A DNA stretch of 64,000 nt from sequence record MZ560701. One strand, written 5' to 3'. The stretch is from Escherichia phage vB_EcoM_TU01. Position 1 is the first letter of the stretch. Each line of letters starts with the position of its first letter. The notes beneath the pieces are model-generated. The model had not been told where the DNA came from. It worked only from the letters and a program-made list of their open reading frames with translations, and did no database searches. The translations under genes and the position numbers were made by a program. Positions 14,436-57,882 of the stretch are shown one piece after another.

Positions 14436-14464
14436 TGTACAACCAAGGATGGTTGGAGTATAAT
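14436..14464 (+). promoter_or_regulatory. repeated promoter cassette TGTACAACCAAGGATGGTTGGAGTATAAT (family A)
   Basis: TATAAT 14459-14464; stem CAACCA/TGGTTG; near-identical copies at 15431, 57295, 57854. Confidence 0.55.
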
Positions 14465-14490
14465 AAATTTTTCAACATGAGGAATATAAA

Positions 14491-15426
14491 ATGGCTTCTA
14501 TTACACGTAGAGAACTTATCAAAGAATTTACCTCGAACGCATATACCCCAGGTCCTAATCCTATCCGTATGCCTGTAAAGACTCCTGAAGAGATTGAGGA
14601 AATTTGTTCATATTATGGGATTACTTCTCGTAAGTTTACTCAATTTGAATGCGTTACTAACACACCCGTTAAAGAGTTCATTAAAAATGGTGAGTTCAGC
14701 CGTTTATTGGCCAAACAGAAACTTCGTAATTTTTGTATCGGCGGNNAAGGACAATATTTCGCTAAACAGTTCAGGAATAACCTTAACAATCTGATGGCCA
14801 TTGCTTCTCGTATTCGTCCTCAAGCAATTAACATGAAACATTTGAAATATACTTACGATAAGTTAGAAATCATGGTTATCAGTGAGAACGAGTTCACTCT
14901 TACGTATAAACCTAAGAATGATAACGTTGCTCGTGTATTCCACCAAGCGTTGGAAGTGTTAGGTGATAATATTCACGAGATTAAAGCAATTTATTCTCGT
15001 GAGCTTAATATTATCAACCCTATCAAGAATAAGGGCCATATCGCTATCCAGGCCCGTGTATCTATTGGTAAAAAGGTTCCTGCGCCATGGTGGCACAAAG
15101 ACTCTGAATACTATCAAAATCTTAAAAAGGAAAATGCAACGTTCGAAGCGTCAATTACTGCAACCCCAATTGGCAATGCTGAAGTTCTAGGTGCATATTC
15201 TACTGCTCCATCTATACACACTTCACCGTCGACTAAACTGGAAATCTCTAACGGTCTTCTTCCTGCCGAAGATTACTATTATAATCAAATCAAGGCCACT
15301 ATGGACCAACTGTCTGTTGAACTTGACAAAGCACAAGCTAAGCTTCGTGATGCTCAAAGTGTTGTAACCAAGCTCCAGTTGCAGTACTCTAAACTTTTTA
15401 ATGCAATGAATGCATTAAAATCATAA
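14491..15426 (+). CDS. hypothetical protein with C-terminal coiled coil
   Basis: QLSVELDKAQAKLRDAQSVVTKLQLQYSKLFNAMNALKS. Confidence 0.5.
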   Translation: MASITRRELIKEFTSNAYTPGPNPIRMPVKTPEEIEEICSYYGITSRKFTQFECVTNTPVKEFIKNGEFSRLLAKQKLRNFCIGXXGQYFAKQFRNNLNNLMAIASRIRPQAINMKHLKYTYDKLEIMVISENEFTLTYKPKNDNVARVFHQALEVLGDNIHEIKAIYSRELNIINPIKNKGHIAIQARVSIGKKVPAPWWHKDSEYYQNLKKENATFEASITATPIGNAEVLGAYSTAPSIHTSPSTKLEISNGLLPAEDYYYNQIKATMDQLSVELDKAQAKLRDAQSVVTKLQLQYSKLFNAMNALKS

Positions 15427-15430
15427 AANA

Positions 15431-15460
15431 GTTTACAACCAAGGACGGTTGGAGTATAAT
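15431..15460 (+). promoter_or_regulatory. repeated promoter cassette GTTTACAACCAAGGACGGTTGGAGTATAAT (family A)
   Basis: GTTTAC 15431-15436, TATAAT 15455-15460. Confidence 0.55.
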
Positions 15461-15488
15461 CTTTCTATCTTAACGAGAGGAAAATATT

Positions 15489-16439
15489 ATGACACGTTCA
15501 CATTACATTGATTATTTTGCAGGTCTTATCGCTAACGTTCATGCTCAGCGTGCTTCTGGTTCATTAGGATTTGATGTTCCACACCGAAATGTAGTAAGTG
15601 GTATTCTTCGAGATTTTGGTACATACACAGGTCAAGAAAATCATATCTGTAAAGATACTCAGAATGCGTATTCTCATTCATTAGGGACATTGCTTCAATG
15701 GTTCAAACGTTCTCGTTTATTATCTTCTACTGTGGCTCGTGATAACATTAAAAACTTTATGAAGCCGAGCTTTATTAAATCTGTGACATCTAAAACTGAT
15801 TTGGTTGAATTTACTATTATTAACGATGTTAAAAAGACTCATTTAGCTGATTGGTTATCTACCATTCCTGAAACTAAATTTGCTGATAAATTTGCTTGTG
15901 AATTCAATAACCAAGTGAATATGCTTTTTAAACATTCACGTAAATTATTCACAGGCGGCGATGACCGTACAAATACGGTTCATGTTAAGGATTGGGTTAC
16001 TGCAGTATTCAAACCAACTGGTAATGGTAACGCATCATTGTCAATTGATATCCAGGTTCCGTATTACTACTCACGTAATCTCGGTACAATGAAAGCCGAA
16101 GAAATTAATAAGCGCAACAAAACCGTTCGTTCGCTATCTTATAAACTTCGTATGATGTTACGGACTATGGACGTAGTAGAAATGTTCAGCGAAACCGAAG
16201 ATAACGGTTCAATGTTATTCAGTTCTCGTATTAAAATTAAGCTGAAGAACCCTAATACGTATAAACCTAAGCCTATTAAAGAGCCTAAAGCAGAAAAAGT
16301 TGATAATTTAAGAGAAGAACGTGAATACCTCAAATCTCGTCTGAAAGAAGTCGAAGCCCAGATTGCAGAACAAACTAAATCGTTAAAAGCTCTGAATGCG
16401 AAAGCGGACGGTTTACGAAATGCCATTGAGGTGTTATAA
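15489..16439 (+). CDS. hypothetical protein with C-terminal coiled coil
   Basis: NLREEREYLKSRLKEVEAQIAEQTKSLKALNAKADGLRNAIEVL. Confidence 0.5.
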   Translation: MTRSHYIDYFAGLIANVHAQRASGSLGFDVPHRNVVSGILRDFGTYTGQENHICKDTQNAYSHSLGTLLQWFKRSRLLSSTVARDNIKNFMKPSFIKSVTSKTDLVEFTIINDVKKTHLADWLSTIPETKFADKFACEFNNQVNMLFKHSRKLFTGGDDRTNTVHVKDWVTAVFKPTGNGNASLSIDIQVPYYYSRNLGTMKAEEINKRNKTVRSLSYKLRMMLRTMDVVEMFSETEDNGSMLFSSRIKIKLKNPNTYKPKPIKEPKAEKVDNLREEREYLKSRLKEVEAQIAEQTKSLKALNAKADGLRNAIEVL

Positions 16440-16744
16440 TGAAACTACGTCTTTTAGAGGATATTGATATGAGCACTAATCATGGCTTGGTTAAGTTTAT
16501 TGACGATAGTTCAAAGATTGAATTTGTTCAGCGAGATAAAATCCACGGTGAAGAAGAGTTCGTTCCTCCGGCATGGAACGAAATCATGAAAATGGTTGAA
16601 CGACGTGAAAATGCTGCCAAATCGGCAGCAAAACATCCATGCCCGGAATGTGGAACTATCCAAGTCCAACTGGTTAACTGGACCACTGATAACTTGAAAT
16701 TGAAATGCCGTAAATGCTTCCACAAATTTGAGAGAACATTATAA
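16439..16744 (+). CDS. hypothetical protein with C-terminal zinc-ribbon (CPECG...CRKC)
   Basis: TAATG overlap; paired Cys-x2-Cys motifs. Confidence 0.45.
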   Translation: MKLRLLEDIDMSTNHGLVKFIDDSSKIEFVQRDKIHGEEEFVPPAWNEIMKMVERRENAAKSAAKHPCPECGTIQVQLVNWTTDNLKLKCRKCFHKFERTL

Positions 16745-17157
16745 TGAGATATAGCCTTCGTTGTTTTATTGTAGCTTTAGTTTTTGCCATCATTCCATTC
16801 ATTTGGAACAGCCAGAATACTTACATGGAAACTAAAGTAATTCCTGTGGAGGTAGTGGAATTAATCTCAGGCCAATCTACAGGAAAATATTCTAAATTAG
16901 AATTTATTGCAGTCTATAAAGATGAGCAAGGACGAGTTTTTGACAGGCATGTATCTCCATCATTTTATACGCTTCTGAATAAAGGTGATACGATAGCTAT
17001 AGAAATTCGTGAGATGGATATCAAACAAACTACTAAAGATAACTTGATTTGGTTCTTTGGTACAGTGTTGTTGGTTTCTATCTGTATCACAGGTTTTATT
17101 ACATGTATTGTATTTGGCGTTGCATATTTAATTGATGAAAGGAAAAATAATGTTTAA
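16744..17157 (+). CDS. membrane protein (N- and C-terminal TM helices)
   Basis: FIVALVFAIIPFIW and LIWFFGTVLLVSICITGFITCIVFGVAYL. Confidence 0.5.
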   Translation: MRYSLRCFIVALVFAIIPFIWNSQNTYMETKVIPVEVVELISGQSTGKYSKLEFIAVYKDEQGRVFDRHVSPSFYTLLNKGDTIAIEIREMDIKQTTKDNLIWFFGTVLLVSICITGFITCIVFGVAYLIDERKNNV

Positions 17158-17413
17158 AGTGTATGGGTATGACTCTACTATTCATAAATGCATTTATTGT
17201 GATAATGCGAAACGATTGCTGACTGTTAAGAAACAGCCATTCGAATTCATTAATGTTATGCCAGAAAAAGGTGTGTTCGATGATGAGAAAATTGCTGAGC
17301 TTCTGGTTAAGCTTGGACGTGAATCACAAGTCGGATTGACTATGCCTCAAGTGTTTGCTCCTGATGGAANTTCGATTGGTGGATTTGACCAACTACGAGA
17401 ATATTTTAAATGA
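17150..17413 (+). CDS. nrdC: glutaredoxin-like thioredoxin
   Basis: MFKVYGYDSTIHKCIYCDNAKRLLTVKKQPFEFINVMPEKGVFDDEKIAEL... matches T4 NrdC. Confidence 0.9.
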   Translation: MFKVYGYDSTIHKCIYCDNAKRLLTVKKQPFEFINVMPEKGVFDDEKIAELLVKLGRESQVGLTMPQVFAPDGXSIGGFDQLREYFK

Positions 17414-17766
17414 CATATTCATTAAATCTTAAAGATTTCCAAGATGTATACGAAGTTTGTGCCAATGAACTTGGTCCTGATGCTCCAACTATTATTGAAG
17501 TTTTAAATGTGCTCCCTTCATCATTAGCTTACGAAGCCAAATCATGGGGTTGGAACGACACTGTCGTTCGTGATGACCTTTACGTCCTGATGAACGATAT
17601 GATGGTTAAAAAGGCAGAACCGGTTGCACCAATGGTTACCATTACCGTTGAAGAATATAATCGCCTGCAAGCCATTGAAGAGCTTCTGTGGAACATTGAA
17701 TGTGACCTGCCTTCAGGGCTAGAATCCTGGATTGATTATGAAGAGCTCAATAAACTCCGGGGTTAA
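17410..17766 (+). CDS. hypothetical protein
   Basis: ATGA overlap with nrdC. Confidence 0.5.
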   Translation: MTYSLNLKDFQDVYEVCANELGPDAPTIIEVLNVLPSSLAYEAKSWGWNDTVVRDDLYVLMNDMMVKKAEPVAPMVTITVEEYNRLQAIEELLWNIECDLPSGLESWIDYEELNKLRG

Positions 17767-17894
17767 ACCGTGGTATTCTGCTCGATGGGAGACTGTCGAG
17801 CCAGACGTCGAAACGGTTTACAACGACGAAGAANCATGTTATGATGAACCTTCAATAAATGAATTAATTGATATGGAAATGGGAAGAGATTATT

Positions 17895-18065
17895 ATGCAA
17901 GTTAAATTATTGTACCGTTTATTAAAAAATGGCAAACATGATTGGTATTTGCTTATTAAAACCGATCCGAATTTTTTCTCTGGACAACCATTTACAGTTC
18001 GTCCTACTAAACGTCAGCTTCGCAAAGCTAAACGTTCTCATCGTAACTTTTATAGAGGATATTGA
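17895..18065 (+). CDS. small protein with basic C-terminal RPTKRQLRKAKR tail (family member 1)
   Basis: ...FTVRPTKRQLRKAKRSHRNFYRGY. Confidence 0.4.
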   Translation: MQVKLLYRLLKNGKHDWYLLIKTDPNFFSGQPFTVRPTKRQLRKAKRSHRNFYRGY

Positions 18066-18066
18066 T

Positions 18067-18480
18067 ATGAATATTTCTGAAACTCGCGGTAAATGGTTCA
18101 AGATTGTTAAAGAAGACGAAGAACTACAAGNNAAGTTTCCTGAATTAAAGAAAGNTACAATCGTCAAGGTAATTGGTACTACTACCGAAGATGGTTATGG
18201 CGACCACGGCATTATCGAAGTGATGTTGAACACAGGTGAGAAACTTTGCATCTATGACCGTGATACTTCTCTTTGGTGCTTCTGGGAATCCCATTCAATA
18301 GATGAACTCGAAGAAATTGACCAAGTAGTTTGTGATNGTGGACTTGGCGAATTTGAAGGTGAACGTATTTCTTATGCTTTAGCTAAATTAGCAGCCCAAG
18401 AAAATAATGACGGTTATGAAGGTAATCTGATGCAAGCCGCAGCGGAATACATTGAATATTTAGAAAGACGTTTAAGTTAA
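18067..18480 (+). CDS. hypothetical acidic protein
   Basis: in-frame ATG right after upstream stop. Confidence 0.45.
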   Translation: MNISETRGKWFKIVKEDEELQXKFPELKKXTIVKVIGTTTEDGYGDHGIIEVMLNTGEKLCIYDRDTSLWCFWESHSIDELEEIDQVVCDXGLGEFEGERISYALAKLAAQENNDGYEGNLMQAAAEYIEYLERRLS

Positions 18481-18489
18481 GGGCTTATT

Positions 18490-18669
18490 ATGAAAACTGC
18501 ATTATTTTTTGGCGAAAGAACAAACGGTCAAAAATCTTGGAAATTTGTTATAATTGGTGCTCCAAACAATCCGAACATGAGGACTTCAATCATTTCGGTA
18601 ACACGTCCTACTAAAAGAATGATTCGTCAATATAAACGTTTTCATCGAGACTTTTATAACGTTTACTAA
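18490..18669 (+). CDS. small protein with basic C-terminal RPTKRMIRQYKR tail (family member 2)
   Basis: ...SVTRPTKRMIRQYKRFHRDFYNVY; below track size cutoff. Confidence 0.4.
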   Translation: MKTALFFGERTNGQKSWKFVIIGAPNNPNMRTSIISVTRPTKRMIRQYKRFHRDFYNVY

Positions 18670-18671
18670 AT

Positions 18672-18701
18672 TATAAATACCCTTATCTANTANGGTAAGG
18701 G
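18672..18701 (+). promoter_or_regulatory. late promoter TATAAATA plus RBS-sequestering hairpin upstream of gene 49
   Basis: TATAAATA 18672-18679; stem CCCTTA (18680-18685) / TAAGGG (18696-18701) includes the SD. Confidence 0.6.
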
Positions 18702-18707
18702 TTTATC

Positions 18708-19181
18708 ATGTTATTATCAGGCAAATTATANAAAGAAGAAAAACAAAAATTTTATGATGCACAGAACGGTAAGTGTCCTATTTGCCACCGTGAATTAGAC
18801 CCTGATGTTCAAGGTAACCATCTTGACCACGACCACGAATTAAACGGGCCAAAAGCAGGTAGAGTTCGTGGGTTACTCTGTAATCTGTGCAACGCAGCAG
18901 AAGGTCAAATGAAGCATAAGTTCAACCGTTCCGGTCTTAAAGGACGTGATGTCGACTACCTCGAATGGCTTGAAGCTCTTCTTGCTTATTTGAAACAAGA
19001 TTATTCTGATAATAATATCCATCCTAATTTTGTTCCAGACAAAACTAAAGAGTTCTCAAGACTAGGTAAAGAGGAAATGATGGCTGAGATGCTTCAAAGA
19101 GGATTTGAATATAATGAATCTGATACCAAAACACAATTAATAGCTTCATTCAAAAAGCAGCTTAGAAAGAGTTTAAAATGA
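18708..19181 (+). CDS. 49: endonuclease VII (Holliday-junction resolvase)
   Basis: MLLSGKLxKEEKQKFYDAQNGKCPICHREL...HLDHDHELNGPKAGRVRGLLCNLCNAAEG... matches T4 gp49. Confidence 0.93.
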   Translation: MLLSGKLXKEEKQKFYDAQNGKCPICHRELDPDVQGNHLDHDHELNGPKAGRVRGLLCNLCNAAEGQMKHKFNRSGLKGRDVDYLEWLEALLAYLKQDYSDNNIHPNFVPDKTKEFSRLGKEEMMAEMLQRGFEYNESDTKTQLIASFKKQLRKSLK

Positions 19182-20995
19182 AAATTGAAAAAGAAATTGA
19201 AGGATTAATTCATAAAACTAATAAAGATCTTTTGAACGAGAATGCTAATAAAGATTCTCGTGTTTTTCCAACTCAACGGGACCTTATGGCTGGTATTGTG
19301 TCTAAGCACATTGCCAAAAATATGGTCCCGTCTTTTATTATGAAAGCGCATGAAAGCGGAATTATCCATTTCCATGATATTGATTATTCCCCTGCTCTTC
19401 CGTTTACTAATTGCTGTTTAGTCGATTTAAAAGGNATGCTTGAGAACGGATTTAANNTAGGCAATGCTCAAATTGAAACGCCTAAATCGATTGGTGTTGC
19501 TACTGCAATTATGGCACAAATTACCGCACAGGTTGCTTCACATCAGTACGGCGGAACGACTTTTGCTAATGTAGATAAAGTACTTTCTCCTTATGTTAAA
19601 CGCACCTATGCAAAACATATTGAGGATGCAGAAAAATGGCAAATCGCTGATGCGTTGAATTATGCCCAATCTAAAACAGAAAAAGATGTATACGATGCAT
19701 TCCAAGCTTATGAATATGAAGTAAATACTCTCTTTAGTTCAAACGGACAAACGCCTTTTGTAACAATTACATTTGGTACTGGAACTGACTGGACTGAACG
19801 AATGATTCAGAAAGCAATTCTGAAAAATCGTATTAAAGGTCTTGGTCGTGATGGGATAACTCCTATTTTCCCTAAACTTGTTATGTTCGTTGAAGAAGGT
19901 GTCAATCTTTATAAAGACGACCCGAACTACGATATTAAGCAGCTTGCTCTAGAGTGTGCAAGCAAAAGAATGTATCCTGATATTATTTCAGTTAAGAACA
20001 ATAAAGCTATCACGGGTTCATCTATTCCTGTTTCTCCAATGGGTTGCCGTAGTTTCTTAAGTGTATGGAAAGATTCGACTGGTAATGAAATTCTTGATGG
20101 ACGTAATAATCTTGGTGTTGTAACACTGAATCTTCCTCGTATTGCATTAGATTCTTATATTGGAACACAGTTCAATGAACAGAAATTTNTCGANNTNTTN
20201 AATGAACGAATGGATCTGTGTTTTGAAGCTTTGATGTGTAGAATTAGTTCTTTAAAGGGAGTTAAAGCAACTGTTGCTCCTATTCTTTACCAAGAAGGTG
20301 CATTCGGGGTTCGTCTTAAACCTGATGACGACATAATTGAGTTATTTAAAAACGGTAGAAGTTCAGTGTCTTTAGGATACATTGGTATTCACGAATTGAA
20401 TATTCTTGTCGGACGTGATATTGGACAGGAAATTTTAACTAAAATGAATGCTCGTCTTAAGCAGTGGACTGAAAGAACTGGTTTTGCTTTTAGCTTGTAT
20501 TCTACACCTGCTGAAAACCTNTGNTATCGCTTCTGTAAACTTGATACTGAGAAATATGGAAGTGTAAANGATGTTACTGATAAAGGCTGGTACACTAACA
20601 GTTTCCACGTTTCAGTAGAAGAAAATATCACTCCGTTTGAAAAGATTTCTCGCGAAGCCCCATATCATTTCATTGCGACAGGCGGNCACATTTCTTATGT
20701 TGAACTTCCTGATATGAAAAATAACCTAAAAGGTCTTGAGGCTGTCTGGGATTATGCTGCGCAACATTTAGATTATTTTGGTGTTAATATGCCAGTAGAT
20801 AAATGTTTTACGTGTGGAAGTACCCATGAAATGACTCCTACTGAAAACGGATTTGTTTGTTCTATTTGTGGAGAAACTGATCCTAAAAAGATGAACACAA
20901 TAAGAAGAACTTGTGGTTATNTTGGAAATCCGAACGAACGCGGATTTAATCTCGGCAAAAATAAAGAAATCATGCATAGGGTTAAACACCAATGA
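19178..20995 (+). CDS. nrdD: anaerobic ribonucleoside-triphosphate reductase (class III), uninterrupted
   Basis: 605-aa ORF; C-terminal Cys cluster and glycyl-radical motif RRTCGYxG; no intron. Confidence 0.95.
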   Translation: MKIEKEIEGLIHKTNKDLLNENANKDSRVFPTQRDLMAGIVSKHIAKNMVPSFIMKAHESGIIHFHDIDYSPALPFTNCCLVDLKXMLENGFXXGNAQIETPKSIGVATAIMAQITAQVASHQYGGTTFANVDKVLSPYVKRTYAKHIEDAEKWQIADALNYAQSKTEKDVYDAFQAYEYEVNTLFSSNGQTPFVTITFGTGTDWTERMIQKAILKNRIKGLGRDGITPIFPKLVMFVEEGVNLYKDDPNYDIKQLALECASKRMYPDIISVKNNKAITGSSIPVSPMGCRSFLSVWKDSTGNEILDGRNNLGVVTLNLPRIALDSYIGTQFNEQKFXXXXNERMDLCFEALMCRISSLKGVKATVAPILYQEGAFGVRLKPDDDIIELFKNGRSSVSLGYIGIHELNILVGRDIGQEILTKMNARLKQWTERTGFAFSLYSTPAENXXYRFCKLDTEKYGSVXDVTDKGWYTNSFHVSVEENITPFEKISREAPYHFIATGXHISYVELPDMKNNLKGLEAVWDYAAQHLDYFGVNMPVDKCFTCGSTHEMTPTENGFVCSICGETDPKKMNTIRRTCGYXGNPNERGFNLGKNKEIMHRVKHQ

Positions 20996-21462
20996 ATTAT
21001 GATAGATTTTATCCTTGTGATTTTGTGAATGGCCCTGGATGCAGGGTCGTTCTTTTCGTTACAGGTTGTTTGCATAAATGCGAAGGGTGTTATAATAAAT
21101 CAACATGGAACGCTAGAAATGGTATTCCATTCACTGGTGAAACACTAGAGCAATTAATTGAATGTTTGAATAATGATTATATAGAAGGATTAACTATAAC
21201 TGGAGGAGACCCTCTCTATCCTGATAACCGAGATGTTGTTCATTGCATTGCTCAAACAGTAAAAAATCTTTATCCNAATAAAAGCATTTGGTTGTGGACA
21301 GGATATAAGTTTGAAGATATTAAACAACTAGAAATGCTTAAATATGTTGATGTTATTATTGATGGGAAGTATGAGAAAAATCTTCCGACCAAAAAGCTGT
21401 GGCGAGGATCAGATAATCAGCGACTTTGGTCAAATACCGATGGGGTGTGGAAACATGATTAA
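20992..21462 (+). CDS. nrdG: anaerobic RNR activating enzyme (radical SAM)
   Basis: CDFVNGPGCRVVLFVTGCLHKCEGCYN cysteine motif. Confidence 0.92.
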   Translation: MNYDRFYPCDFVNGPGCRVVLFVTGCLHKCEGCYNKSTWNARNGIPFTGETLEQLIECLNNDYIEGLTITGGDPLYPDNRDVVHCIAQTVKNLYXNKSIWLWTGYKFEDIKQLEMLKYVDVIIDGKYEKNLPTKKLWRGSDNQRLWSNTDGVWKHD

Positions 21463-21788: not shown

Positions 21789-21790
21789 TT

Positions 21791-23633: not shown

Positions 23634-23672
23634 TGTACAACGATAGGAAGACATGTTATTATCTTCCTATCG
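23634..23672 (+). promoter_or_regulatory. early promoter in perfect 11-bp hairpin (PeSL-like)
   Basis: TGTACA 23634-23639; stem CGATAGGAAGA/TCTTCCTATCG enclosing TGTTATTAT. Confidence 0.55.
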
Positions 23673-23693: not shown

Positions 23694-23933
23694 ATGGCCC
23701 AAGAATTAGANNNNNNNNNNNNNNNNNNNNNNNNNNNNNNNNNNNNNNNNNNNNNNNNNNNNNNNNNNNNNTATGACATTTTAACAGATGCTATTACTGT
23801 TAGTTGTGGTGGAAANNNNNNNNNNNNNNNNNNNACTGAAAACAAATACCCAATCTATAAAGGCATCTTTGATATGGGTGTTGATATTAGNNNNNNNNNN
23901 NNNNNNNNNNNNNNNNNNNNNNNNNNNAAATAA
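23694..23933 (+). CDS. hypothetical protein, mostly N-masked
   Basis: ORF spans three N runs; only fragments readable. Confidence 0.25.
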   Translation: MAQELXXXXXXXXXXXXXXXXXXXXXYDILTDAITVSCGGXXXXXXXTENKYPIYKGIFDMGVDIXXXXXXXXXXXXXK

Positions 23934-45528: not shown

Positions 45529-45903
45529 ATGAATATGTCTCAAGCAATTTTTACTGCAATCACCGAAAACACAACTGTTGAAGTAGTTTCTCCGCTGGCA
45601 ACCTACGTTATTCTTGCTCCTAAAACTATTGTATCTCGTATGGAAAACATGGGCAAACGTATCGTACAAATTGTTGGAGCCGGAAATCAAAAACTTGATT
45701 ATCTGCGAACCATCAAAGCTTATGAACATTTCCAACTCGAAAAAGGTTCTCCTATCCAGGTAGAACTCGTAAATGGTGATATCGTTCGAGCAATGTTCCA
45801 TCATTTCTATGCATTGAATGACCCATCTAAAGCGGTTCGTTTAATTGCATATGACGCAAACCAAAACGAAATCAACGCAGATATATCTAAATTACGTTTT
45901 TAA
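45529..45903 (+). CDS. hypothetical protein
   Basis: AGAGGAAAA RBS. Confidence 0.5.
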   Translation: MNMSQAIFTAITENTTVEVVSPLATYVILAPKTIVSRMENMGKRIVQIVGAGNQKLDYLRTIKAYEHFQLEKGSPIQVELVNGDIVRAMFHHFYALNDPSKAVRLIAYDANQNEINADISKLRF

Positions 45904-45950
45904 GTTTACTTCTCCAGTAGTTGTGTTATTATAGACCTATCAACTACTGG
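45904..45950 (+). promoter_or_regulatory. early promoter/stem-loop (PeSL-like)
   Basis: GTTTAC 45904-45909, TATTAT 45927-45932, CCAGTAGTTG/CAACTACTGG inverted repeat. Confidence 0.55.
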
Positions 45951-45958
45951 AGAACAAA

Positions 45959-46276: not shown

Positions 46277-46464
46277 GCAAATTAACTAAAGTTACTTTTA
46301 TCGGTTGGTTTAAAAGCGGTGAGATGTTCACTAAAGATATCATGTTATCAGGTGATCGCGAAGAAATCGAGTGGGTTACGGTACAACTTGCTGAAGTGAA
46401 CAAAGCATTAGTTAAAGCATTTGTTAATGACGAGAAAGTTTTTGAAGCTGATTTCAGAGGATAA
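46273..46464 (+). CDS. dmd: Dmd antitoxin (discriminator of mRNA degradation)
   Basis: MSKLTKVTFIGWFKSGEMFTKDIMLSGD...QLAEVNKALVKAFVNDEKVFEADFRG resembles T4 Dmd as recalled. Confidence 0.75.
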   Translation: MSKLTKVTFIGWFKSGEMFTKDIMLSGDREEIEWVTVQLAEVNKALVKAFVNDEKVFEADFRG

Positions 46465-46465
46465 T

Positions 46466-46678
46466 ATGTATTCAACTGTGTTTAAACCATCAACATACGA
46501 ATTTGCATCAACTACACAATGGAAAGCTCTTATTCTGGAAGGATGGGAACTAATGATGGATTGTGAAGCATCTGAAAAGTTTCCACACGGCAAAGTGGAC
46601 TTCGTTAAATTTGCTGTACGTCCGACTAAACGACAGATTCGTCAAGAAAAACGCAAATTTCGCAAAAGTTTAAAATAA
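46466..46678 (+). CDS. small protein with basic C-terminal RPTKRQIRQEKRKFR tail (family member 3)
   Basis: ...FAVRPTKRQIRQEKRKFRKSLK. Confidence 0.45.
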   Translation: MYSTVFKPSTYEFASTTQWKALILEGWELMMDCEASEKFPHGKVDFVKFAVRPTKRQIRQEKRKFRKSLK

Positions 46679-46680: not shown

Positions 46681-46709
46681 GTTTACAAGCACCACATACT
46701 GTGTTACTA
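46681..46709 (+). promoter_or_regulatory. T4-type early promoter (GTTTAC-17 nt-TACTAT)
   Basis: GTTTAC 46681-46686, TACTAT 46704-46709. Confidence 0.5.
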
Positions 46710-50978: not shown

Positions 50979-50984
50979 TTAAGT

Positions 50985-50992
50985 TATAAATA
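50985..50992 (+). promoter_or_regulatory. late promoter TATAAATA for soc
   Basis: exact TATAAATA upstream of AAGGAG RBS. Confidence 0.6.
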
Positions 50993-51023
50993 CACCTGTA
51001 ATTAAACAACAAAGGAGTTAATT

Positions 51024-51260: not shown

Positions 51261-51267
51261 ATAATTC

Positions 51268-51298
51268 AAGGAATCCTTCGGGATTCCTTTTTTTTTTG
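51268..51298 (+). terminator. rho-independent terminator AAGGAATCC-TTCG-GGATTCCTT + T10
   Basis: 9-bp stem, UUCG loop, 10-nt T-run. Confidence 0.85.
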
Positions 51299-51306
51299 TT
51301 TCTACA

Positions 51307-51336
51307 GTTTACAACCACTAAAAACTGTGTTAAGAT
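51307..51336 (+). promoter_or_regulatory. T4-type early promoter (GTTTAC-18 nt-TAAGAT)
   Basis: GTTTAC 51307-51312. Confidence 0.45.
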
Positions 51337-51364
51337 ATTCTTACTTACTCAAGAGGAGAACAAT

Positions 51365-51592
51365 ATGTTAAATCGTTGGATTAAACCTAATAACACATTA
51401 GGTGCTTTGATTGCTCAAGAAGTTTCGTTGAAATACGGTCTTGGATATTACGATGATGTAGTCGTACACTCATTCATGATGGATGGTGAAGACGTCAAAT
51501 TTAATGCCGAAATCCGTTGGGATGACGGTGGTGTTCGTTTTGTTCGAGGAACAATTAATGCTTACGATGCTGAAGAAGTTGTTTGCTGTTAA
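51365..51592 (+). CDS. hypothetical protein
   Basis: GAGGAG RBS. Confidence 0.45.
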   Translation: MLNRWIKPNNTLGALIAQEVSLKYGLGYYDDVVVHSFMMDGEDVKFNAEIRWDDGGVRFVRGTINAYDAEEVVCC

Positions 51593-51790
51593 ACCAGGCG
51601 AAGGTATGATGCCTATTCCTGATACACNCGAAAAGNCTTGGGAATATATCGGCGACGGAATGATGGAAGAAGTTGTTCGTCCAAAGTCTGCTTCAAGCTC
51701 TTCAAGTTATAATCATTCATACGTATCGTCTTGGCCTGGTGATTCTGGGTCAAGTTATTCTGATTGTGGTTCAAGCTCAGGGAGCTGCGA

Positions 51791-51970
51791 ATGAACANGA
51801 TAGTAAAATGGTTTAAAAGCTGGGACGATGGTGTCGGTCCGGAAGATTGGCTGGATGTTCTTGAAGAGAATATGGCTAAAGAATTCCAGAAACACGAAGA
51901 GAAGCTCGTCGAAGATGAAGGCGAACGTATTGTAAAACTTTATATGGGTGAACCATCGAGGAAATTATAA
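51791..51970 (+). CDS. small hypothetical acidic protein
   Basis: ATGA overlap. Confidence 0.35.
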   Translation: MNXIVKWFKSWDDGVGPEDWLDVLEENMAKEFQKHEEKLVEDEGERIVKLYMGEPSRKL

Positions 51971-52434
51971 TGGATGCTATGTTATTTAAAATGTATTTGC
52001 TTGAAGCCAAGTCGTTTAAACATATACCAGTAGAAGATAAGACTCCACTAGAAATAGCTATTCTCATTAACAAAAGTCTAAATAATCCGCAATATATCGT
52101 AGAAGAATTCTGCAAATTGCAGATTCCTAAAGGTTATAAAATTCGTGTAGAGCGAGTTGGAGCTATTACTCATTCTAAAAATTCTCCGTTTAGTCTTGAA
52201 GAAGGCATAAAGGACTTAGGTTATGAATCTACGGAAAATGCAGTTTATGTGAATCCAGAAAAGCGTTTAGACCTGTTTGAAAAGCGAGACCATAAGTATT
52301 TTGCCAAAAAATACTTTATTACATCATTAGCAGATTTAANCCATTTGCAACGAGCTATTTGGAAATTTTTTAAGACAAAAGGTGTAGCACTAGAAACATT
52401 CTCTGAACCTGCTAGTTTTTATCTTGGTGAATAA
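51970..52434 (+). CDS. hypothetical protein
   Basis: ORF track. Confidence 0.5.
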   Translation: MDAMLFKMYLLEAKSFKHIPVEDKTPLEIAILINKSLNNPQYIVEEFCKLQIPKGYKIRVERVGAITHSKNSPFSLEEGIKDLGYESTENAVYVNPEKRLDLFEKRDHKYFAKKYFITSLADLXHLQRAIWKFFKTKGVALETFSEPASFYLGE

Positions 52435-52435
52435 T

Positions 52436-52615
52436 ATGGACNTNATGAGTATGTTTGATGAGCCTGAAGTTGAGGCTCCTAAAGTGCATCGTAGTGAACT
52501 TGTTGATGAACTAGATAGTATTATACAACGTCACGGCTTTAGTTTACCTGTTGAAGCCCTGAAAGACCTTGCCTCTTATTATGACGACCCTCCACCATGG
52601 AGTCCTTGGAAATGA
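52436..52615 (+). CDS. small hypothetical acidic protein
   Basis: ORF track, start refined. Confidence 0.4.
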   Translation: MDXMSMFDEPEVEAPKVHRSELVDELDSIIQRHGFSLPVEALKDLASYYDDPPPWSPWK

Positions 52616-52776
52616 AAGAGAAATTTAAAGAGAAATTCTTACTAGAAATCAAGGAAAAAGACTTTGAGACATGGTATCGAATGGTGAAAGGGTTGACATT
52701 GCTTTTTAAAGCATCCTTATTCATGTTAGAACAACCTGGACCTGATGGACCTTTAGTAGGAAAGCTTAAAAAGTAG
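52612..52776 (+). CDS. small hypothetical protein (54 aa)
   Basis: ATGA overlap; below track cutoff. Confidence 0.3.
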   Translation: MKEKFKEKFLLEIKEKDFETWYRMVKGLTLLFKASLFMLEQPGPDGPLVGKLKK

Positions 52777-52804
52777 TTTACATTCCCTCCTCTCGTGTTA
52801 TGAT
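52776..52804 (+). promoter_or_regulatory. T4-type early promoter (GTTTAC-17 nt-TATGAT)
   Basis: GTTTAC 52776-52781. Confidence 0.45.
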
Positions 52805-52831
52805 AGGCTTATCTTTAAATGGAGGTCTATC

Positions 52832-53413
52832 ATGACATGTCAATCTGAACTTCAAGAACGTGAATACCTAACAAATCTGATTGATAGCAAATTCACCCGC
52901 CAAGAACAAAACATTCTCTGGGCTTGCACCGATTCTAAGGAAGACCCGGATTTCCACTATGAATTAGACCATCTTGTTCGTAAGCATATGACTTCTACAG
53001 TACCAGTAGAACTCTACCGTGGTGTAACTCCAGAAGAAGTAGAACGTCTTTCACTTCTTTCTGTTGGATGCCATTGGTCTCCTGGACGAGTAACATCGTT
53101 CACAACTGATTTCAGTACAGCTCGTCAATTCTCCGGGAGATGGGAATATCAGACGTACACTATTCTTAGTCTCAGGAATGCTCCATTCATTTTTGATTAC
53201 TACCAAAACATGGTTAACATTGTACTTGCCGGAAAGAACCCTAAGCATGTTATGGAAGAAACTCGTNTNGATGTCCTAGATATGATTGAATCTGAACAAG
53301 AGTACATGGTCTCAGGTATCTCTAGATTTGAGATTGTGGAAATTGAAGACTTAGAATATGACCCTTTATCTCGATTATACAAAATCATTCATTTAAAAAT
53401 GTTGAATTTTTAG
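52832..53413 (+). CDS. modB: ADP-ribosyltransferase, ModB-like by position
   Basis: R-S-E class motifs: ELYRG, SFTTDFSTAR, EQEYMV; paralogue of next gene. Confidence 0.7.
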   Translation: MTCQSELQEREYLTNLIDSKFTRQEQNILWACTDSKEDPDFHYELDHLVRKHMTSTVPVELYRGVTPEEVERLSLLSVGCHWSPGRVTSFTTDFSTARQFSGRWEYQTYTILSLRNAPFIFDYYQNMVNIVLAGKNPKHVMEETRXDVLDMIESEQEYMVSGISRFEIVEIEDLEYDPLSRLYKIIHLKMLNF

Positions 53414-53442
53414 TGTACAAACTCTACNGACGATGATACTAT
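53414..53442 (+). promoter_or_regulatory. early promoter (TGTACA-17 nt-TACTAT)
   Basis: TGTACA 53414-53419. Confidence 0.4.
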
Positions 53443-53470
53443 ACTTTTATCAACCACAGGAGAAACCTAA

Positions 53471-54079
53471 ATGTTTATGCCGTATAATGAATGTGAAATT
53501 GAGGAAATGGTTCGACGTGCNCAAAACCCCGAATATCAAGATGTATTGCAGTACGAAATNGATAGTCAATTCAGCGACATTGAACAAAGTGTACTGTGGC
53601 AATGTATGGAAAACAAGCCAGACAGCATCCAACAAGATTTAAGTGCAATTGTTCGTAGAAATTGGTCNTCTTCNGTTCCTGAGACAATGTATCGTGGAAT
53701 CTCTAAGAAAACTATGGCCACACTCGACGATAAAGGCNTTGGTAGTATTATTAAATTTGACAGAGTAATGAGCTTTAGTCCGGTGTTCGGTGTAGCACGT
53801 AACTTCGCTTCATATAATTTTTATGGAACATTTAATATGTTCTGCATCAAAGATGCACCATTTGCTTTCAACTTCCGTGAACATATGCTTAATATGATTC
53901 TGGCTGCACCATCTTGTGAGTTCAATGGAGCTTTCCCTGAAGCGACAAGACGGTCTAATGCTAGACTTATATCTGACGAATGTGAATTTATGCTCCCTAT
54001 AGGGACTACACTGCGTGTAGATTCTATTATTCAAGATGGACGTTATACAATCTGGAATCTGTCTATTGTCAGTTACTGA
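53471..54079 (+). CDS. modA: ADP-ribosyltransferase, ModA-like by position
   Basis: TMYRG, SFSPVFGVAR, ECEFML motifs; paralogue of modB-like. Confidence 0.7.
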   Translation: MFMPYNECEIEEMVRRXQNPEYQDVLQYEXDSQFSDIEQSVLWQCMENKPDSIQQDLSAIVRRNWXSXVPETMYRGISKKTMATLDDKGXGSIIKFDRVMSFSPVFGVARNFASYNFYGTFNMFCIKDAPFAFNFREHMLNMILAAPSCEFNGAFPEATRRSNARLISDECEFMLPIGTTLRVDSIIQDGRYTIWNLSIVSY

Positions 54080-54231
54080 CTGGATTGGAATAACCGGATG
54101 GAACTCAGAACCATTATAACACATAAAAAATTAAAGCATTTTACGAAAAAAGAGTGTACACTACCTGAGGGCATGATATTATANACCNATCAGCTAAATG
54201 ACCTAACGTCCGTAAGACAGAGGAAAATATT

Positions 54232-54978
54232 ATGTTATCAAATAATAAAATTAACAAAATCAATCGTCGTCTTGACCACACCAGAGCTTCTGCGAAGAGA
54301 CGCTCTAAGGATTTTAACTTAGACTTTAATTACCTTAAAAACATTCTTGATCAAAAGGTCTGCGCTTACTCAGGTGAATCTTTCAATAACTCTGTTGAAG
54401 GTGAGAAATTATCCTTAGAACGTTTTAATAATGATATAGGCTACATTAAAGGTAATGTCATCCCAGTTAAGAAAAAATATAACACGGCTCGTTCTGATTT
54501 AACATTAGAAGAACTTATTGAGAAACGTGACGCNATTGCAAGACGTATCGCTAATCCTTCTGCCCGTAAAGTAGAGAAACTTAATCTCGACGAGAAGAAA
54601 TGGGCCCAAATTAAAAAGGTTTATGGTACTATTTTAAAAATCCGAGCAAAACGTGAAAATCGTGTTAAGCATATGGCGAACATGATGAAAAATCAACCTT
54701 TATCTAACGAATCTAAACTTAGAATTGTTGCTTTGAAAGCACGCATTAATGGATCACATCAAGCAGAAGGCCATGAACTTACTAAACTCAANGTTCTTCT
54801 TAAAGGCTCTGACTGGAAAACTAAAACTAAATTAACTGACGCTGAATCGCTTTTCGATACATATGATAAAGTTATCCAAGGTCTGCAACGTTTTGAAAAG
54901 ATCGGTTTCATNGGTAAATTAAAATTGAAACGTGGCTTACCACTTAGCGCATCNTTATTCCAACTGATTAAAGGTTAA
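54232..54978 (+). CDS. srd: Srd-like protein (similarity to T4 Srd by size and synteny)
   Basis: 248 aa between modA-like and dda; basic N-terminus. Confidence 0.65.
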   Translation: MLSNNKINKINRRLDHTRASAKRRSKDFNLDFNYLKNILDQKVCAYSGESFNNSVEGEKLSLERFNNDIGYIKGNVIPVKKKYNTARSDLTLEELIEKRDXIARRIANPSARKVEKLNLDEKKWAQIKKVYGTILKIRAKRENRVKHMANMMKNQPLSNESKLRIVALKARINGSHQAEGHELTKLXVLLKGSDWKTKTKLTDAESLFDTYDKVIQGLQRFEKIGFXGKLKLKRGLPLSAXLFQLIKG

Positions 54979-54980
54979 TT

Positions 54981-55292
54981 ATGGTTTATGTATATGCAAT
55001 AGTTTATCGAGATATGGAAGGATTTACTGTCCCGGTTCCACTTGATGAGCATCGTCCTGCAGTATTTTTTAGAAAGGATATTGCAGATAAAGTTTTCGAT
55101 ACTTTGAAAACACAGTATAAAACAGATTTAAAAATGGGAGTTCTAAGAATGGTCGAAACTCCGCGTAAGTTCTGGTTTAATAAGCTTGAAATGAAACACA
55201 TTAAACTAGATGCGGAGACGCAAAAATTNTATCAACGAATCCTGGACACAGGCCGTATTGTTAGTATTCCAATTGCAGGGACTTTACGATGA
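54981..55292 (+). CDS. hypothetical protein (dda.1 position)
   Basis: ATGA overlap with dda. Confidence 0.5.
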   Translation: MVYVYAIVYRDMEGFTVPVPLDEHRPAVFFRKDIADKVFDTLKTQYKTDLKMGVLRMVETPRKFWFNKLEMKHIKLDAETQKXYQRILDTGRIVSIPIAGTLR

Positions 55293-56602
55293 CATTTGAT
55301 GATTTGACTGAAGGCCAGAAAAACGCCTTCAACGTTGTTATGNANGCTATTAAAGAAAAGAAACATCACGTAACTATTAATGGGCCTGCTGGTACAGGTA
55401 AAACAACCCTTACTAGATTCATCGTTGAAGCCCTTATTTCTTCTGGAGAATCAGGTATTATTTTAGCAGCCCCTACACATGCCGCTAAAAAGGTTCTAAG
55501 CAAACTTGCGGGTCAAGAAGCATCGACTATTCATAGCATTCTTAAAATCAACCCAACTACATACGAAGAAAACGTATTGTTTGAACAGAAAAAGGTTCCC
55601 GACTTAGCCTTGTGCCGTGTACTGTTATTTGATGAAGCGTCAATGTGCGACCGTTCTCTGTTTAAAATAATGTTAGCTAGTATCCCTAAATGGTGTACAG
55701 TAATTGGAATCGGCGACCGATGTCAGATTCGTCCGGTAGACCCAGGCGAATCAACTGCGTATCTAAGTCCTTTCTTCACACACAAAGACTTCGTGCAATG
55801 CAACCTTACAGAAGTTAAACGTAGCAATGCACCAATTATTGATGTTGCGACTGATATTCGTAACGGCAAATGGATTTACGATAAAGTAGTTGATGGGCAC
55901 GGTGTTCATGGATATACAGACCTTAAATCGTATATGATGAACTATTTTAACGTCGTTAAAACTCCTGAAGACCTTTTCGAAAATCGAATGATGGCATTCA
56001 CAAATAAGTCGGTGGACAAGTTAAATTCAATTATTCGCCGAAAACTTCTTGAAACAGAAAAACCATTTATTAAAGACGAAGTCATTGTTCTACAAGAGCC
56101 ATTTACTAAGACATATAAGCTAGATGGTAAAAATATGACCGAAATGCTTTTCAATAACGGTCAATTCGTTCGTATTCGAGATGCTGTAGAAACGTCTACA
56201 TTCGTTAAAGCACGNGGTGTTTCAGGCGAATATATGATACGATACTGGAATCTTACAGTAGAAACATACGGGGATGATGAAGAATACATCCGCGAAGATA
56301 TAAAGGTTATTTCTTCTGAAGAAGAGCTTTATAAATTCAATTTGTTTTTGGCTAAGACCGCAGAAACATACAAATTTTGGAATAAAGGTGGTAAAGCTCC
56401 ATGGAGCGAATTCTGGGATGCTAAACGTATGTTCACTAAGGTGAAGGCNCTACCAGTATCAACCTTCCATAAGGCCCAGGGTATGTCTGTTGACACGGCC
56501 TTTGTTTATACACCGTGTATCCATTANGCCGATTCAGAATTAGCTAAACAGTTATTGTATGTTGGCACAACTCGTGGTCGGTTTGACGTCCATTTTATTT
56601 GA
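55289..56602 (+). CDS. dda: Dda DNA helicase (SF1B)
   Basis: MTFDDLTEGQKNAFNVVM...NGPAGTGKTTL...LLFDEASM matches T4 Dda. Confidence 0.95.
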   Translation: MTFDDLTEGQKNAFNVVMXAIKEKKHHVTINGPAGTGKTTLTRFIVEALISSGESGIILAAPTHAAKKVLSKLAGQEASTIHSILKINPTTYEENVLFEQKKVPDLALCRVLLFDEASMCDRSLFKIMLASIPKWCTVIGIGDRCQIRPVDPGESTAYLSPFFTHKDFVQCNLTEVKRSNAPIIDVATDIRNGKWIYDKVVDGHGVHGYTDLKSYMMNYFNVVKTPEDLFENRMMAFTNKSVDKLNSIIRRKLLETEKPFIKDEVIVLQEPFTKTYKLDGKNMTEMLFNNGQFVRIRDAVETSTFVKAXGVSGEYMIRYWNLTVETYGDDEEYIREDIKVISSEEELYKFNLFLAKTAETYKFWNKGGKAPWSEFWDAKRMFTKVKXLPVSTFHKAQGMSVDTAFVYTPCIHXADSELAKQLLYVGTTRGRFDVHFI

Positions 56603-56611
56603 GAGAAAATT

Positions 56612-57289
56612 ATGAGCACTGATGTTATTATAGATTTTGAAACATTCGGCAATACATCAAAAGCGGCTGTTATTGACCTTGCGGTTATTGCATATAATTC
56701 CGACCCTGAAGTTGTTGAATCATTTGAAGAACTTGTNCAACGAGGTAAGCGAATTAAATTTAATTTAGCTTCTCAGAAAGGGAAGCGAGTTTTCGCTAAA
56801 TCCACTATGAAATGGTGGAAAGAACAATCNGCTGAAGCNCGTAAAAACTTGGCTCCGTCTGAAGACGATGTCACTACGCTTGAAGGCATTAAAATCTTTT
56901 TAGATTATTGCCGAGCTAATAAAGTTGACCAATGGAAATCACAGATGTGGTGNCGTGGTATGAGCTTTGACTTCCCGATATTGGTCGATTTGATTCGTGA
57001 CCTCTATCGTGATGAAGGTGTTCTTGAACCAGAGATTGATACTGATAAATTAGAACCGGTTAAATTCTGGGCTCAACGCGATATTCGTACGGCAATCGAA
57101 GCTTACTCGTTGACACGAGGATTAAGTATGTGTCCATTACCGATGGGTACGCTAAAAGGATTCGTTGCCCATGATAGTATTCATGATTGTGCTAAAGATA
57201 TTTTGATGTTAAAATATGCTCAGCGTTATGCGCTTGGCCTTGAAGATGTCCCTGAGAATCCTGACCCGTTAAGTGTAAAACAGCGATAA
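56612..57289 (+). CDS. dexA: exonuclease A (DEDD 3'-5' exonuclease)
   Basis: VIIDFETFGNTSKAAVIDLAVIAY...HDSIHDCAKD matches T4 DexA. Confidence 0.88.
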   Translation: MSTDVIIDFETFGNTSKAAVIDLAVIAYNSDPEVVESFEELXQRGKRIKFNLASQKGKRVFAKSTMKWWKEQXAEXRKNLAPSEDDVTTLEGIKIFLDYCRANKVDQWKSQMWXRGMSFDFPILVDLIRDLYRDEGVLEPEIDTDKLEPVKFWAQRDIRTAIEAYSLTRGLSMCPLPMGTLKGFVAHDSIHDCAKDILMLKYAQRYALGLEDVPENPDPLSVKQR

Positions 57290-57294
57290 AACCA

Positions 57295-57324
57295 GTTTAC
57301 AACCAAGGATGGTTGGAGTATAAT
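57295..57324 (+). promoter_or_regulatory. repeated promoter cassette GTTTACAACCAAGGATGGTTGGAGTATAAT (family A)
   Basis: GTTTAC 57295-57300, TATAAT 57319-57324. Confidence 0.55.
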
Positions 57325-57355
57325 CTTTCTATCTTAACNAAACNGGAAAAACATT

Positions 57356-57850
57356 ATGAATATCAATACTACGGCTACTTACATCCTGAAAGACGAAAAA
57401 CAAATCAACTGGTACGGTGCTTCAGTGCGAGCTTATGAAAAGTTTTGTGAAATTTTAGGTGCCACTCAAGGTAATAGTTTCACTATTGTTAACTTCATTA
57501 AACAAGCTGAAGGCCCTTGGTTATTCTTAGAAATTAAAAATTCATACGGTACAATTTCTACTACCGCCATTCCAAGCACCGACTTTGAACTGTTGATTGA
57601 AGAAGCACCTGTTAAAGATGGTCTCCACTTTGATATGGATATCGCTTGTATGTACGGTACTCTGATTAAGCCTATTGAGCCTACTGATTTATTGTGTAAA
57701 TATGTTTCAATTCGNCGCCCATTCGCTGGNCCNGTAAATGGNTGGGTAACTGACCAGTGGATTGAAGATGGGGTTGAACTTCTGAACGTTGTTCATGCCG
57801 GTGATTTTAGTGTTGTTCCACGTAGTGCAGTAGTTAATATTCTAAATTAA
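57356..57850 (+). CDS. hypothetical protein, paralogue family WVxDxWxEDG (member 1)
   Basis: C-terminal WVTDQWIEDGVELLNVVHAGDFSVVP. Confidence 0.5.
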   Translation: MNINTTATYILKDEKQINWYGASVRAYEKFCEILGATQGNSFTIVNFIKQAEGPWLFLEIKNSYGTISTTAIPSTDFELLIEEAPVKDGLHFDMDIACMYGTLIKPIEPTDLLCKYVSIXRPFAXXVNXWVTDQWIEDGVELLNVVHAGDFSVVPRSAVVNILN

Positions 57851-57853
57851 TGT

Positions 57854-57882
57854 TGTACATCCAAGGATGGATGGAGTATAAT
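57854..57882 (+). promoter_or_regulatory. repeated promoter cassette TGTACATCCAAGGATGGATGGAGTATAAT (family A)
   Basis: TATAAT 57877-57882. Confidence 0.55.

Follow-up and report, generated by a model that had tools for sequence, protein, structure and literature searches.

Background

Repeated early promoters with a built-in stem-loop are known from several T4-type phages as promoter early stem-loops (PeSLs), and here we describe such elements in a stretch of 64,000 nucleotides (nt) from Escherichia phage vB_EcoM_TU01 (record MZ560701), the whole of which is called the window below. PeSLs were reported for RB49/phi1 (Arbiol et al. 2010, PMC2839356) and for T4/PST and KVP40/nt-1 (Comeau et al. 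2014, PMC4122927). A PeSL is intergenic and consists of a sigma-70-type promoter with AT-rich sequence upstream, a stem-loop between the -35 and -10 hexamers or overlapping the -10, a Shine-Dalgarno sequence (SD) and a start codon; five positions of the stem-loop have been published (PMC2839356). One RB49 stem-loop cut lacZ expression about as strongly as a strong terminator, and recombination between direct PeSL copies removes the intervening open reading frame (ORF) (PMC2839356).

Other described systems share single features with the elements of the window. The early promoters of T4 form the 'uber' UP/-35/TGn/-10 class (Hinton 2010, PMC2988021), and the early promoter sites that Nolan et al. 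2006 predicted for RB69 number 58 in their Additional file 3 and 57 in their text (PMC1524935). In both papers the promoters appear as a class with a common consensus, and not as hairpin cassettes that are repeated and recombine. Hairpins that sequester the ribosome-binding site (RBS) and contain an internal promoter are known at T4 e, soc, 49 and I-TevI (PMC3014915). Lambdoid morons are likewise single genes that bring their own promoter; unlike in morons, the repeated promoter is itself the crossover site in the window phage.

The window shares 97-98% identity with the Mosigvirus genomes JS09, JN02 and NHEP10, which belong to the RB69 group of T-even phages. It holds the early-gene arm with e, regB, tk, the nrdC cluster, nrdD, 55, 46/47, 45/44/62 and 43, which continues through 41, modA/B, dda, dexA, motB and gene 39 up to rIIA.1, with all genes on the + strand. 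It is the early-gene region of an RB69-like (Mosigvirus) T-even phage.

In this region we find repeated elements which are probably sigma-70-dependent early promoters, packed in cassettes of ~50-65 nt that belong to the PeSL class. Like PeSLs, they are intergenic composites with a promoter that is sigma-70-like at the sequence level, AT-rich upstream sequence and a stem-loop; they are repeated in plastic early regions beside indels and replacements, and an ORF has been excised or inserted between flanking copies. They differ from the PeSLs of RB49/phi1, T4/PST and KVP40/nt-1 in genus (Mosigvirus) and in having A/T-richer stems with no G-tract/C-tract and no terminator signature. Two subfamilies also set them apart: one keeps a fixed AGGA loop on covarying stems in three genera, and another pairs the promoter spacer with the SD. 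With the early promoters of T4 and RB69 the elements share a GTTTAC-type -35, a 16-17-nt spacer, a TATAAT-like -10 and an additional start-site consensus.

Family-1 cassettes

A degenerate 29-mer was found on the + strand at 14436, 15432, 57296 and 57854 with 0-1 mismatch, and it had no match in 100 shuffles. These are the four loci at which an earlier, sequence-only reading of the window had noticed a near-identical cassette, two of its positions (15431 and 57295) being the G of GTTTAC, one base upstream. We refer to the four sites as copies A to D of family 1. Their layout is T(T/G)TACA, the 17-nt spacer ACCAAGGA(T/C)GGTTGGAG and TATAAT, with ATCC...GGAT in the spacer of copy D. Copy A (14436-14464, + strand; -35 TGTACA at 14436-14441, -10 TATAAT at 14459-14464) lies after the nrdC.6 stop codon and before nrdC.5 (ATG at 14491), and its hairpin CAACCA-AGGA-TGGTTG (14440-14455, + strand) sits inside the 17-nt spacer region. 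Copy B (15432-15460, + strand; TTTACA, TATAAT) precedes nrdC.3 (ATG at 15489), and its hairpin (15436-15451) has lost the closing pair (AGGAC). Copy C (57296-57324, + strand; TTTACA, hairpin at 57300-57315, TATAAT) lies after dexA and before a motB.1-like gene (ATG at 57356). Copy D (57854-57882, + strand; TGTACA, TATAAT) precedes motB (ATG at 57913), and its hairpin CATCCA-AGGA-TGGATG (57858-57873) carries a compensatory A-T to T-A change relative to the other copies.

All four copies are intergenic, starting 0-10 nt past a stop codon and ending 27-31 nt before an SD-preceded ATG, and they are the top sigma-70 matches in their regions (10-11/12 with a 17-nt spacer). Copies B and C are 94% identical over 50 nt; the identity of these cassettes extends over 46-50 nt and reaches 20 nt past the -10. 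A degenerate relic, TTTACC-CAAGGACGGGT-TATAAT, was found upstream of nrdC.6 (13382-13404, + strand). It is probably inactive as a promoter, because its spacer is only ~11 nt. With this fifth copy, the consecutive genes nrdC.6, nrdC.5 and nrdC.3 are each headed by a family-1 element. The window also contains 322 N characters, single and scattered in otherwise high-quality sequence, and two elements are affected by them (at 15429, 57339 and 57344).

An extended -10 had been ascribed to every element. The TGn motif is indeed present in family 2, described below, and in most other promoters of the window. Family 1 has GAG before TATAAT instead, and so it is a -35/-10 variant inside the T4-type early promoter class.

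We located the RB69 orthologues of the window promoters and compared them with the early promoters predicted by Nolan et al. 2006. The orthologue of copy A (RB69 52027-51999) falls inside Pe:52042, that of copy B (51004-50976) inside Pe:51019 and that of copy C (8932-8904) inside Pe:8947, while the orthologue of copy D, directly upstream of RB69 motB (start 8318), falls inside Pe:8387. Since the orthologues of all four family-1 copies are inside the RB69 list, as are those of elements of family 2 and of the hairpin class called type A below (Pe:53683, Pe:7443 and Pe:6863), the identity of these elements as early promoters had already been predicted. The motB leaders of T4 and VR5 also retain, 3' of another and complete promoter cassette, a remnant of the 3' part of family 1, (G/A)TGGAG(T/A)ATAAA, as if an ancestral family-1 promoter had had its 5' half replaced.

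Natural recombinants and gene neighbours

Copies A and B lie 996 nt apart with nrdC.5 (14491-15426, + strand) between them, and copies C and D lie 558 nt apart with the motB.1-like gene (57356-57850, + strand) between them. A BLAST search with the nrdC.6-nrdC.3 stretch showed that in phage vB_Eco_F27 ~996 nt are missing and nrdC.5 is absent. What is left at the junction is one chimeric element, with the upstream half of copy A (GGAATGA-TGTACA...) and the downstream half of copy B (...TATAAT-CTTTCTATCTTAACGAGAGG). Phage AV118 lacks the motB.1-like gene in the same manner and carries a single element whose upstream half comes from copy C and whose downstream half comes from copy D. Among 170 matching phage records, 21 contain the F27-type junction as one full-length match, and the AV118-type junction was found in ~19 of 156 matching records at an identity of at least 94%. 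Both types thus occur in ~12% of matching records, where duplicate records of the same phage are included in the counts, and several phages carry both. The genotype without the motB.1-like gene was counted by this identity cut-off and not by coverage, because genomes without the deletion also align over 98 nt at 88%.

A single chimeric element together with an absent gene is the product that the PeSL model predicts for recombination of direct copies (PMC2839356). The alignments show that neighbouring direct copies have undergone such recombination in natural phages, whose genomes are without the gene in between and retain a single chimeric element; these Mosigvirus genomes are the strongest evidence for the cassette reading.

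The identity between copies is sharply confined to the cassette. It covers 46 nt in the pair 15432/57296, 29 nt in the pair 12795/45905 and 32 nt in the T4 pair nrdC.4/rIIA.1. Between the motB promoter of T4 and the gp55.2 promoter of VR5, which stand before different genes in different genera, 38 nt are identical.

The genes behind the cassettes had been described as unrelated to each other. This holds for nrdC.5 and nrdC.3, and it fails for the genes after 57296 and 57854, which are MotB-like paralogues. In fact, three consecutive MotB-like paralogues follow dexA (57356, 57913 and 58378; span 57356-58797), and nrdC.3 and nrdC.4 are distant paralogues. Tandem paralogy was considered as the sole cause of the repetition and rejected in part, given that nrdC.5 and nrdC.3 are unrelated whereas the other pairs are paralogous.

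After the MotB-like trio comes a homologue of motB.2 (58857-59381), which in T4 and VR5 stands directly after dexA. It is therefore transposed with respect to both, and every moved unit opens with a promoter, so that the gene order after dexA is a permutation of promoter-headed units. The same trend is found over the window. Synteny with T4 is broken at 16 of 19 promoter junctions compared with 53 of 99 other junctions (p = 0.010), and synteny with VR5 at 14 of 17 compared with 38 of 82 (p = 0.006). When the comparison is limited to intergenic gaps of at least 40 nt, the enrichment is still seen (p = 0.038 for T4 and p = 0.007 for VR5). The suggestion in the sequence-only reading that these are mobile, PeSL-like cassettes is thereby supported: the anatomy fits that of PMC2839356, synteny breaks are enriched at the promoters, and chimeric copies exist in Mosigviruses without the intervening gene.

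Family 2 and the third family

A second family had been proposed at four loci. Its exact 28-mer was found at two sites only, 12815 and 45925. The elements at 59382 and 11319 have in common with it merely the 18-nt core TG(T/A)TA(T/C)TATAGACCTATC, which also matches four further promoters (up to 3 mismatches) and is therefore a general consensus of the early promoters of this phage. One of the two full members is the nrdC.8 promoter (12794-12849, + strand; RB69 Pe:53683), with GTTTAC, TGn and TATTAT and with an 8-bp inverted repeat, AGGTCTAT/ATAGACCT, on either side of the -10. An exact 28-29-mer is common to it and the other member (45904-45958, + strand), which is at the same time of type A: the 5' arm TTCTCCAGTAGTTG in its spacer pairs with the SD-containing CAACTACTGGAGAA, and the predicted hairpin has -21.1 kcal/mol (z = -5.9). 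The looser members are the cef promoter (59382-59438, + strand; RB69 Pe:6863), with TGTACA, TGn, TACTAT and the inverted repeat GGTCTAT/ATAGACC on either side of the -10, and the nrdC.10 promoter (11319-11384, + strand), which has no significant hairpin of its own. Directly upstream of the latter, at ~11266-11297, lies a terminator-like hairpin.

In a repeat search of the window, all the largest direct-repeat families turned out to be promoter cassettes. Among them is a third promoter family that was not on the earlier list, with its repeat at 4249, 7902 and 58796 (and at 45898). In the regB promoter (4255-4311, + strand), a type-A element, the spacer arm TTCTCCTCTAGTTG pairs with the SD CAACTAGAGGAGAA at -21.3 kcal/mol. 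In the type-A promoter at 7908-7963 (+ strand), which is of one family with those at 4255 and 58802, the anti-SD arm of the spacer pairs with the SD GAGGAGAA. The type-A promoter before the motB.2 homologue (58802-58856, + strand; RB69 Pe:7443) has the arms TTCTCCTCTGGTT and AACCAGAGGAGAA and a predicted hairpin of -23.9 kcal/mol (z = -7.9). Over 19 promoters, the mean A+T content in the 25 nt upstream of the -35 is 72% compared with 63% for the window, a modest enrichment.

Covariation of the stems and the AGGA loop

The family-1 stem covaries across Mosigvirus, Dhakavirus and T4, with the AGGA loop fixed. The T4 promoters compared are orthologues or paralogues of those in the window. In the T4 nrdC.4 and rIIA.1 promoters, the loop sits on the stem (G/A)CCACA-AGGA-TGTGG(T), and T4 nrdC.3 has a decayed upstream element, AGCCA-AGGA-TGGCT. 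Dhakavirus stems read CATCCA/TGGATG, and further T-even contigs of ~170 kb from IMG/VR have CTTCCA/TGGAGG. Relatives in IMG/VR were obtained at 4 loci by protein-anchored retrieval, and by exact-pattern scans at 11 and then 109 loci. Most of the 109 are due to chance, and these were used as the null for stem length: stems are 2-3 bp long in chance matches, apart from a few of 4-5 bp, and 4-7 bp long in the matches at T-even promoters, every one of which has a 17-nt spacer.

Nine distinct variants were compared. Of all cells of the alignment 90.7% are paired, compared with 63.5% in shuffles, and 0 of 500 shuffles reach the observed value. Both-sided changes occur at 4 of the 6 pairs, with one position taking A-U, U-A, G-C and C-G. 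The covariation score is 0.67 in the true register and 0.03-0.16 in slid registers. We regard this covariation evidence as good but not overwhelming, because the set of variants is small and was partly selected by a pattern that fixes CA...TG. In the type-A family, which includes the T4 regB promoter and one VR5 promoter, 5 of 14 pairs are compensatory. Across the aligned variants, the hairpins are thus shown to be kept by compensatory changes.

The loop occupies -25 to -22 in the window, whereas in T4 it is found 4 nt nearer to the -10, at -21 to -18. As its position shifts, it is not a fixed contact of RNA polymerase. The hairpin has an invariant CA-AGGA-TG top on a freely covarying stem across at least 3 T-even genera, and it survives where the promoter has decayed (T4 nrdC.3; 13382 in the window). 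One may speculate from this that the family-1 hairpin is a discrete functional module in its own right, made of RNA or single-stranded DNA, but we see perhaps some chance of this and not an expectation. If it were true, the loop could be a specific site for a phage nuclease or the ribosome, insulating adjacent cassettes, or alternatively a structure that targets the recombination by which copies are joined.

Hairpin architectures and predicted masking of the ribosome site

Each promoter was folded from the -35 to the ATG, and three architectures were distinguished. In type A (4256, 7909, 45905 and 58803), the 5' arm directly follows the -35 and the 3' arm is the SD; these hairpins have -21 to -24 kcal/mol and z values down to -7.9. 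In type B (8623, 12795, 23634, 47423 and 59382), the arms flank the -10. Type C is family 1, with the entire hairpin within the spacer, at -6 to -8 kcal/mol and z of about -2 to -3. The promoters at 1310, 47112, 11319 and 54155 have no hairpin. It had been claimed that each element has an inverted repeat which ends in the SD of the next gene. We see this at 45904 and also in the third family (4256, 7909 and 58803), and not in family 1, at 12794 or at 59382.

Compared with random 60-mers of the window, promoter regions have more structure (median z of -1.6 against 0.0; Mann-Whitney p = 3e-5), and an Rfam search of the whole window matched no family. The leaders beginning at a gene's own start site are essentially unstructured in every case, with folding energies near 0. 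Because the 5' arm of the hairpin is inside the promoter, the hairpin is possible only in RNA that reads through from upstream.

For type A, this difference concerns the ribosome site directly. The probability that the SD is unpaired is predicted to be 0.00-0.11 when RNA reads through from upstream, compared with 0.57-0.82 for the gene's own transcript. The spacer arm TTCTCCTC of this family resembles an anti-SD, and the SDs themselves (GGAGAACAAAA and similar) match the strong RegB site, whose consensus is GG*AGRAYARAA; RegB alone recognises GGA, and secondary structure protects from cleavage (PMC3014915). From the masking, the site match and this protection we infer that read-through RNA of type-A genes would be untranslated and RegB-resistant, and that the gene's own transcript would be open to both.

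An RBS-sequestering hairpin with an internal promoter is therefore seen at 4256, 7909, 45905 and 58803, and not in family 1. As at T4 e, soc, 49 and I-TevI, the 5' arm precedes the internal start and the SD lies in the 3' arm, and the logic is that long transcripts are masked and the promoter-proximal transcript is open. The difference is that the internal promoter of the T4 genes is late and delays expression, whereas here it is an early promoter, and masking would confine translation to the gene's own early transcript.

Interpretation and alternative explanations

Our preferred explanation, early promoters in PeSL-class cassettes, can be put as follows. A cassette would begin with an AT-rich stretch past the upstream stop codon, continue with the -35, the spacer and the -10, and end with a short leader, SD and ATG. 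Duplication, followed by ectopic recombination or gene conversion, would account for near-identity of the copies within a genome together with divergence between genera. In the TTCTCCTC family, the spacer arm would mask the GGAG ribosome site in read-through RNA, so that the gene's own promoter would be needed for translation and probably also for cleavage of the SD by RegB. Such masking would insulate each cassette from its neighbours. The AGGA-loop hairpin of family 1 may have its effect on read-through RNA too, through attenuation, through processing or by protecting a 3' end.

Several results weigh against this explanation or narrow it. Promoter activity and start sites come from the sequence and from published predictions. 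Part of the repetition is tandem gene duplication, because nrdC.3/nrdC.4 and the MotB-like genes are paralogous. The junctions without a gene could be ancestral, with a unit of gene plus cassette inserted later. With respect to the acting strand or molecule, sense and antisense hairpins differ in stability only at p = 0.067. No intrinsic terminator was called at the promoter-embedded hairpins, and no T-run follows their stems; the published role as attenuators is therefore without sequence support here. The earlier proposal that the hairpin masks the RBS is valid for type A, and we rejected it as a general rule: median SD accessibility in read-through RNA does not differ between 19 promoter genes and 101 promoterless genes (p = 0.41), and only the share of strongly masked SDs is higher, with 7 of 19 compared with 15 of 101. 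In family 1 there is no SD masking, both arms being within the spacer.

Among the alternatives, the one that fares best holds that the hairpins are terminators or attenuators of upstream transcription, as proposed for the PeSLs of RB49/phi1, so that cassettes are isolated at the level of transcription. The effect of the RB49 stem-loop on lacZ, about that of a strong terminator (PMC2839356), speaks for it, and so does the fact that the hairpins are intergenic and exist only in read-through RNA. We nevertheless consider it rather unlikely. Besides the absence of T-runs and terminator-like calls, the family-1 stems are weak (-6 to -8 kcal/mol), the RB49 stems are G/C tracts unlike those of the window, and separate terminator-like hairpins are present upstream of some promoters (~11266-11297; after gene 41).

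A less probable alternative takes family 1 as an RNA processing signal, in which RegB with S1, or RNase E, cuts the single-stranded GGAGUAUAAU on the 3' side of the hairpin, so that the upstream mRNA would keep a hairpin that protects its 3' end and would be separated from the downstream cistron. In every Mosigvirus and Dhakavirus copy the hairpin is followed by GGAG, which would suit RegB, given its recognition of GGA and the protection by structure (consensus GG*AGRAYARAA; PMC3014915), and GGAGUAUAAU fits 4 of 6 positions after GGAG. This match to the extended consensus is only partial, and the T4 variants (CCACA-AGGA-TGTGG-TATAAT) have no GGAG at all; we think it improbable that processing is the explanation.

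It is also very doubtful that a dimeric DNA-binding regulator uses the palindromic family-1 spacer as its operator, with the four genes co-regulated and near-identity due to selection on the protein site. An inverted repeat between -35 and -10 does occupy the classic repressor position, and the central CA-AGGA-TG is invariant in all variants. The stem, however, shows four alternative base pairs at one of its positions and also has G-U pairs, which fits pairing within a nucleic acid and not sequence-specific recognition of duplex DNA, and the invariant AGGA core is not itself palindromic. Covariation, the G-U pairs and the position, 4 nt nearer to the -10 in T4 variants than in the window, together make a duplex-DNA operator unlikely. 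T-even phage DNA has modified cytosine, which disfavours host factors, and the recombinant junctions show exchange among copies.

Mere convergence on a strong promoter consensus, without shared descent or exchange, is hardly credible: the -35, the -10 and the flanking consensus are common to all T-even early promoters (PMC2988021), but the 17-nt spacer, which sigma-70 does not constrain, is identical or nearly so among the copies and unlike the spacers of other window promoters, identity continues 20 nt past the -10 in 15432/57296, and the chimeric junctions prove exchange.

Other observations in the window

Some further features were noted in the same region. The sole indel of the window relative to NHEP10 is a 205-nt stretch (46455-46657) present in the window and not in NHEP10; its 3' end is 24 nt before a TTTACA-N17-TACTAT promoter at 46682. 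Relative to JS09, the alignment has a 61-nt patch (23711-23771) which is unalignable and of equal length there, the rest being gap-free at ~98% identity. The patch lies in the 5' part of a small gene (23694-23933), directly 3' of the promoter at 23634.

Two repeat families are found in coding sequence. In one (18000-18054, 18604-18658 and 46619-46673), three small ORFs have a similar basic stretch at their ends, CGTCCTACTAAACGT..., roughly RPTKRQ.R..KR...., which may be a C-terminal motif common to unrelated small early proteins. In the other (422-458, 1182-1218, 1362-1398 and 1703-1739), the first ~12 codons, ATGAAAAC.TAT.AAGAATTT..., are common to four neighbouring small genes in the internal-protein region. 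This shared start is similar to the N-terminal targeting leader that T4 internal proteins have in common.

Upstream of rIIA.1, at ~63725-63800, a 10-bp inverted repeat (GGCACTATTA...TAATAGTGCC) surrounds a weak promoter-like ATTACA...TATATG. In T4, the rIIA.1 locus has an AGGA-hairpin promoter in its place.

Conclusions

Elements of this kind are known from the studies of 2006, 2010 and 2014, and our findings do not overturn the current understanding. What is added is the Mosigvirus case, three hairpin architectures with covariation for two of them, and the conserved AGGA-loop hairpin. The three architectures, which the PeSL literature lumps together, are separated here, and one of them, with an anti-SD arm in the spacer, points to insulation of the cassettes via translation and RegB sensitivity and not via termination. 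For the T4 family, the window and its relatives offer a clean natural example, in a well-sampled genus, of repeated promoter cassettes driving gene gain and loss: nrdC.5 and the motB.1-like gene are each present or absent among isolates, with the crossover inside the repeated promoter.

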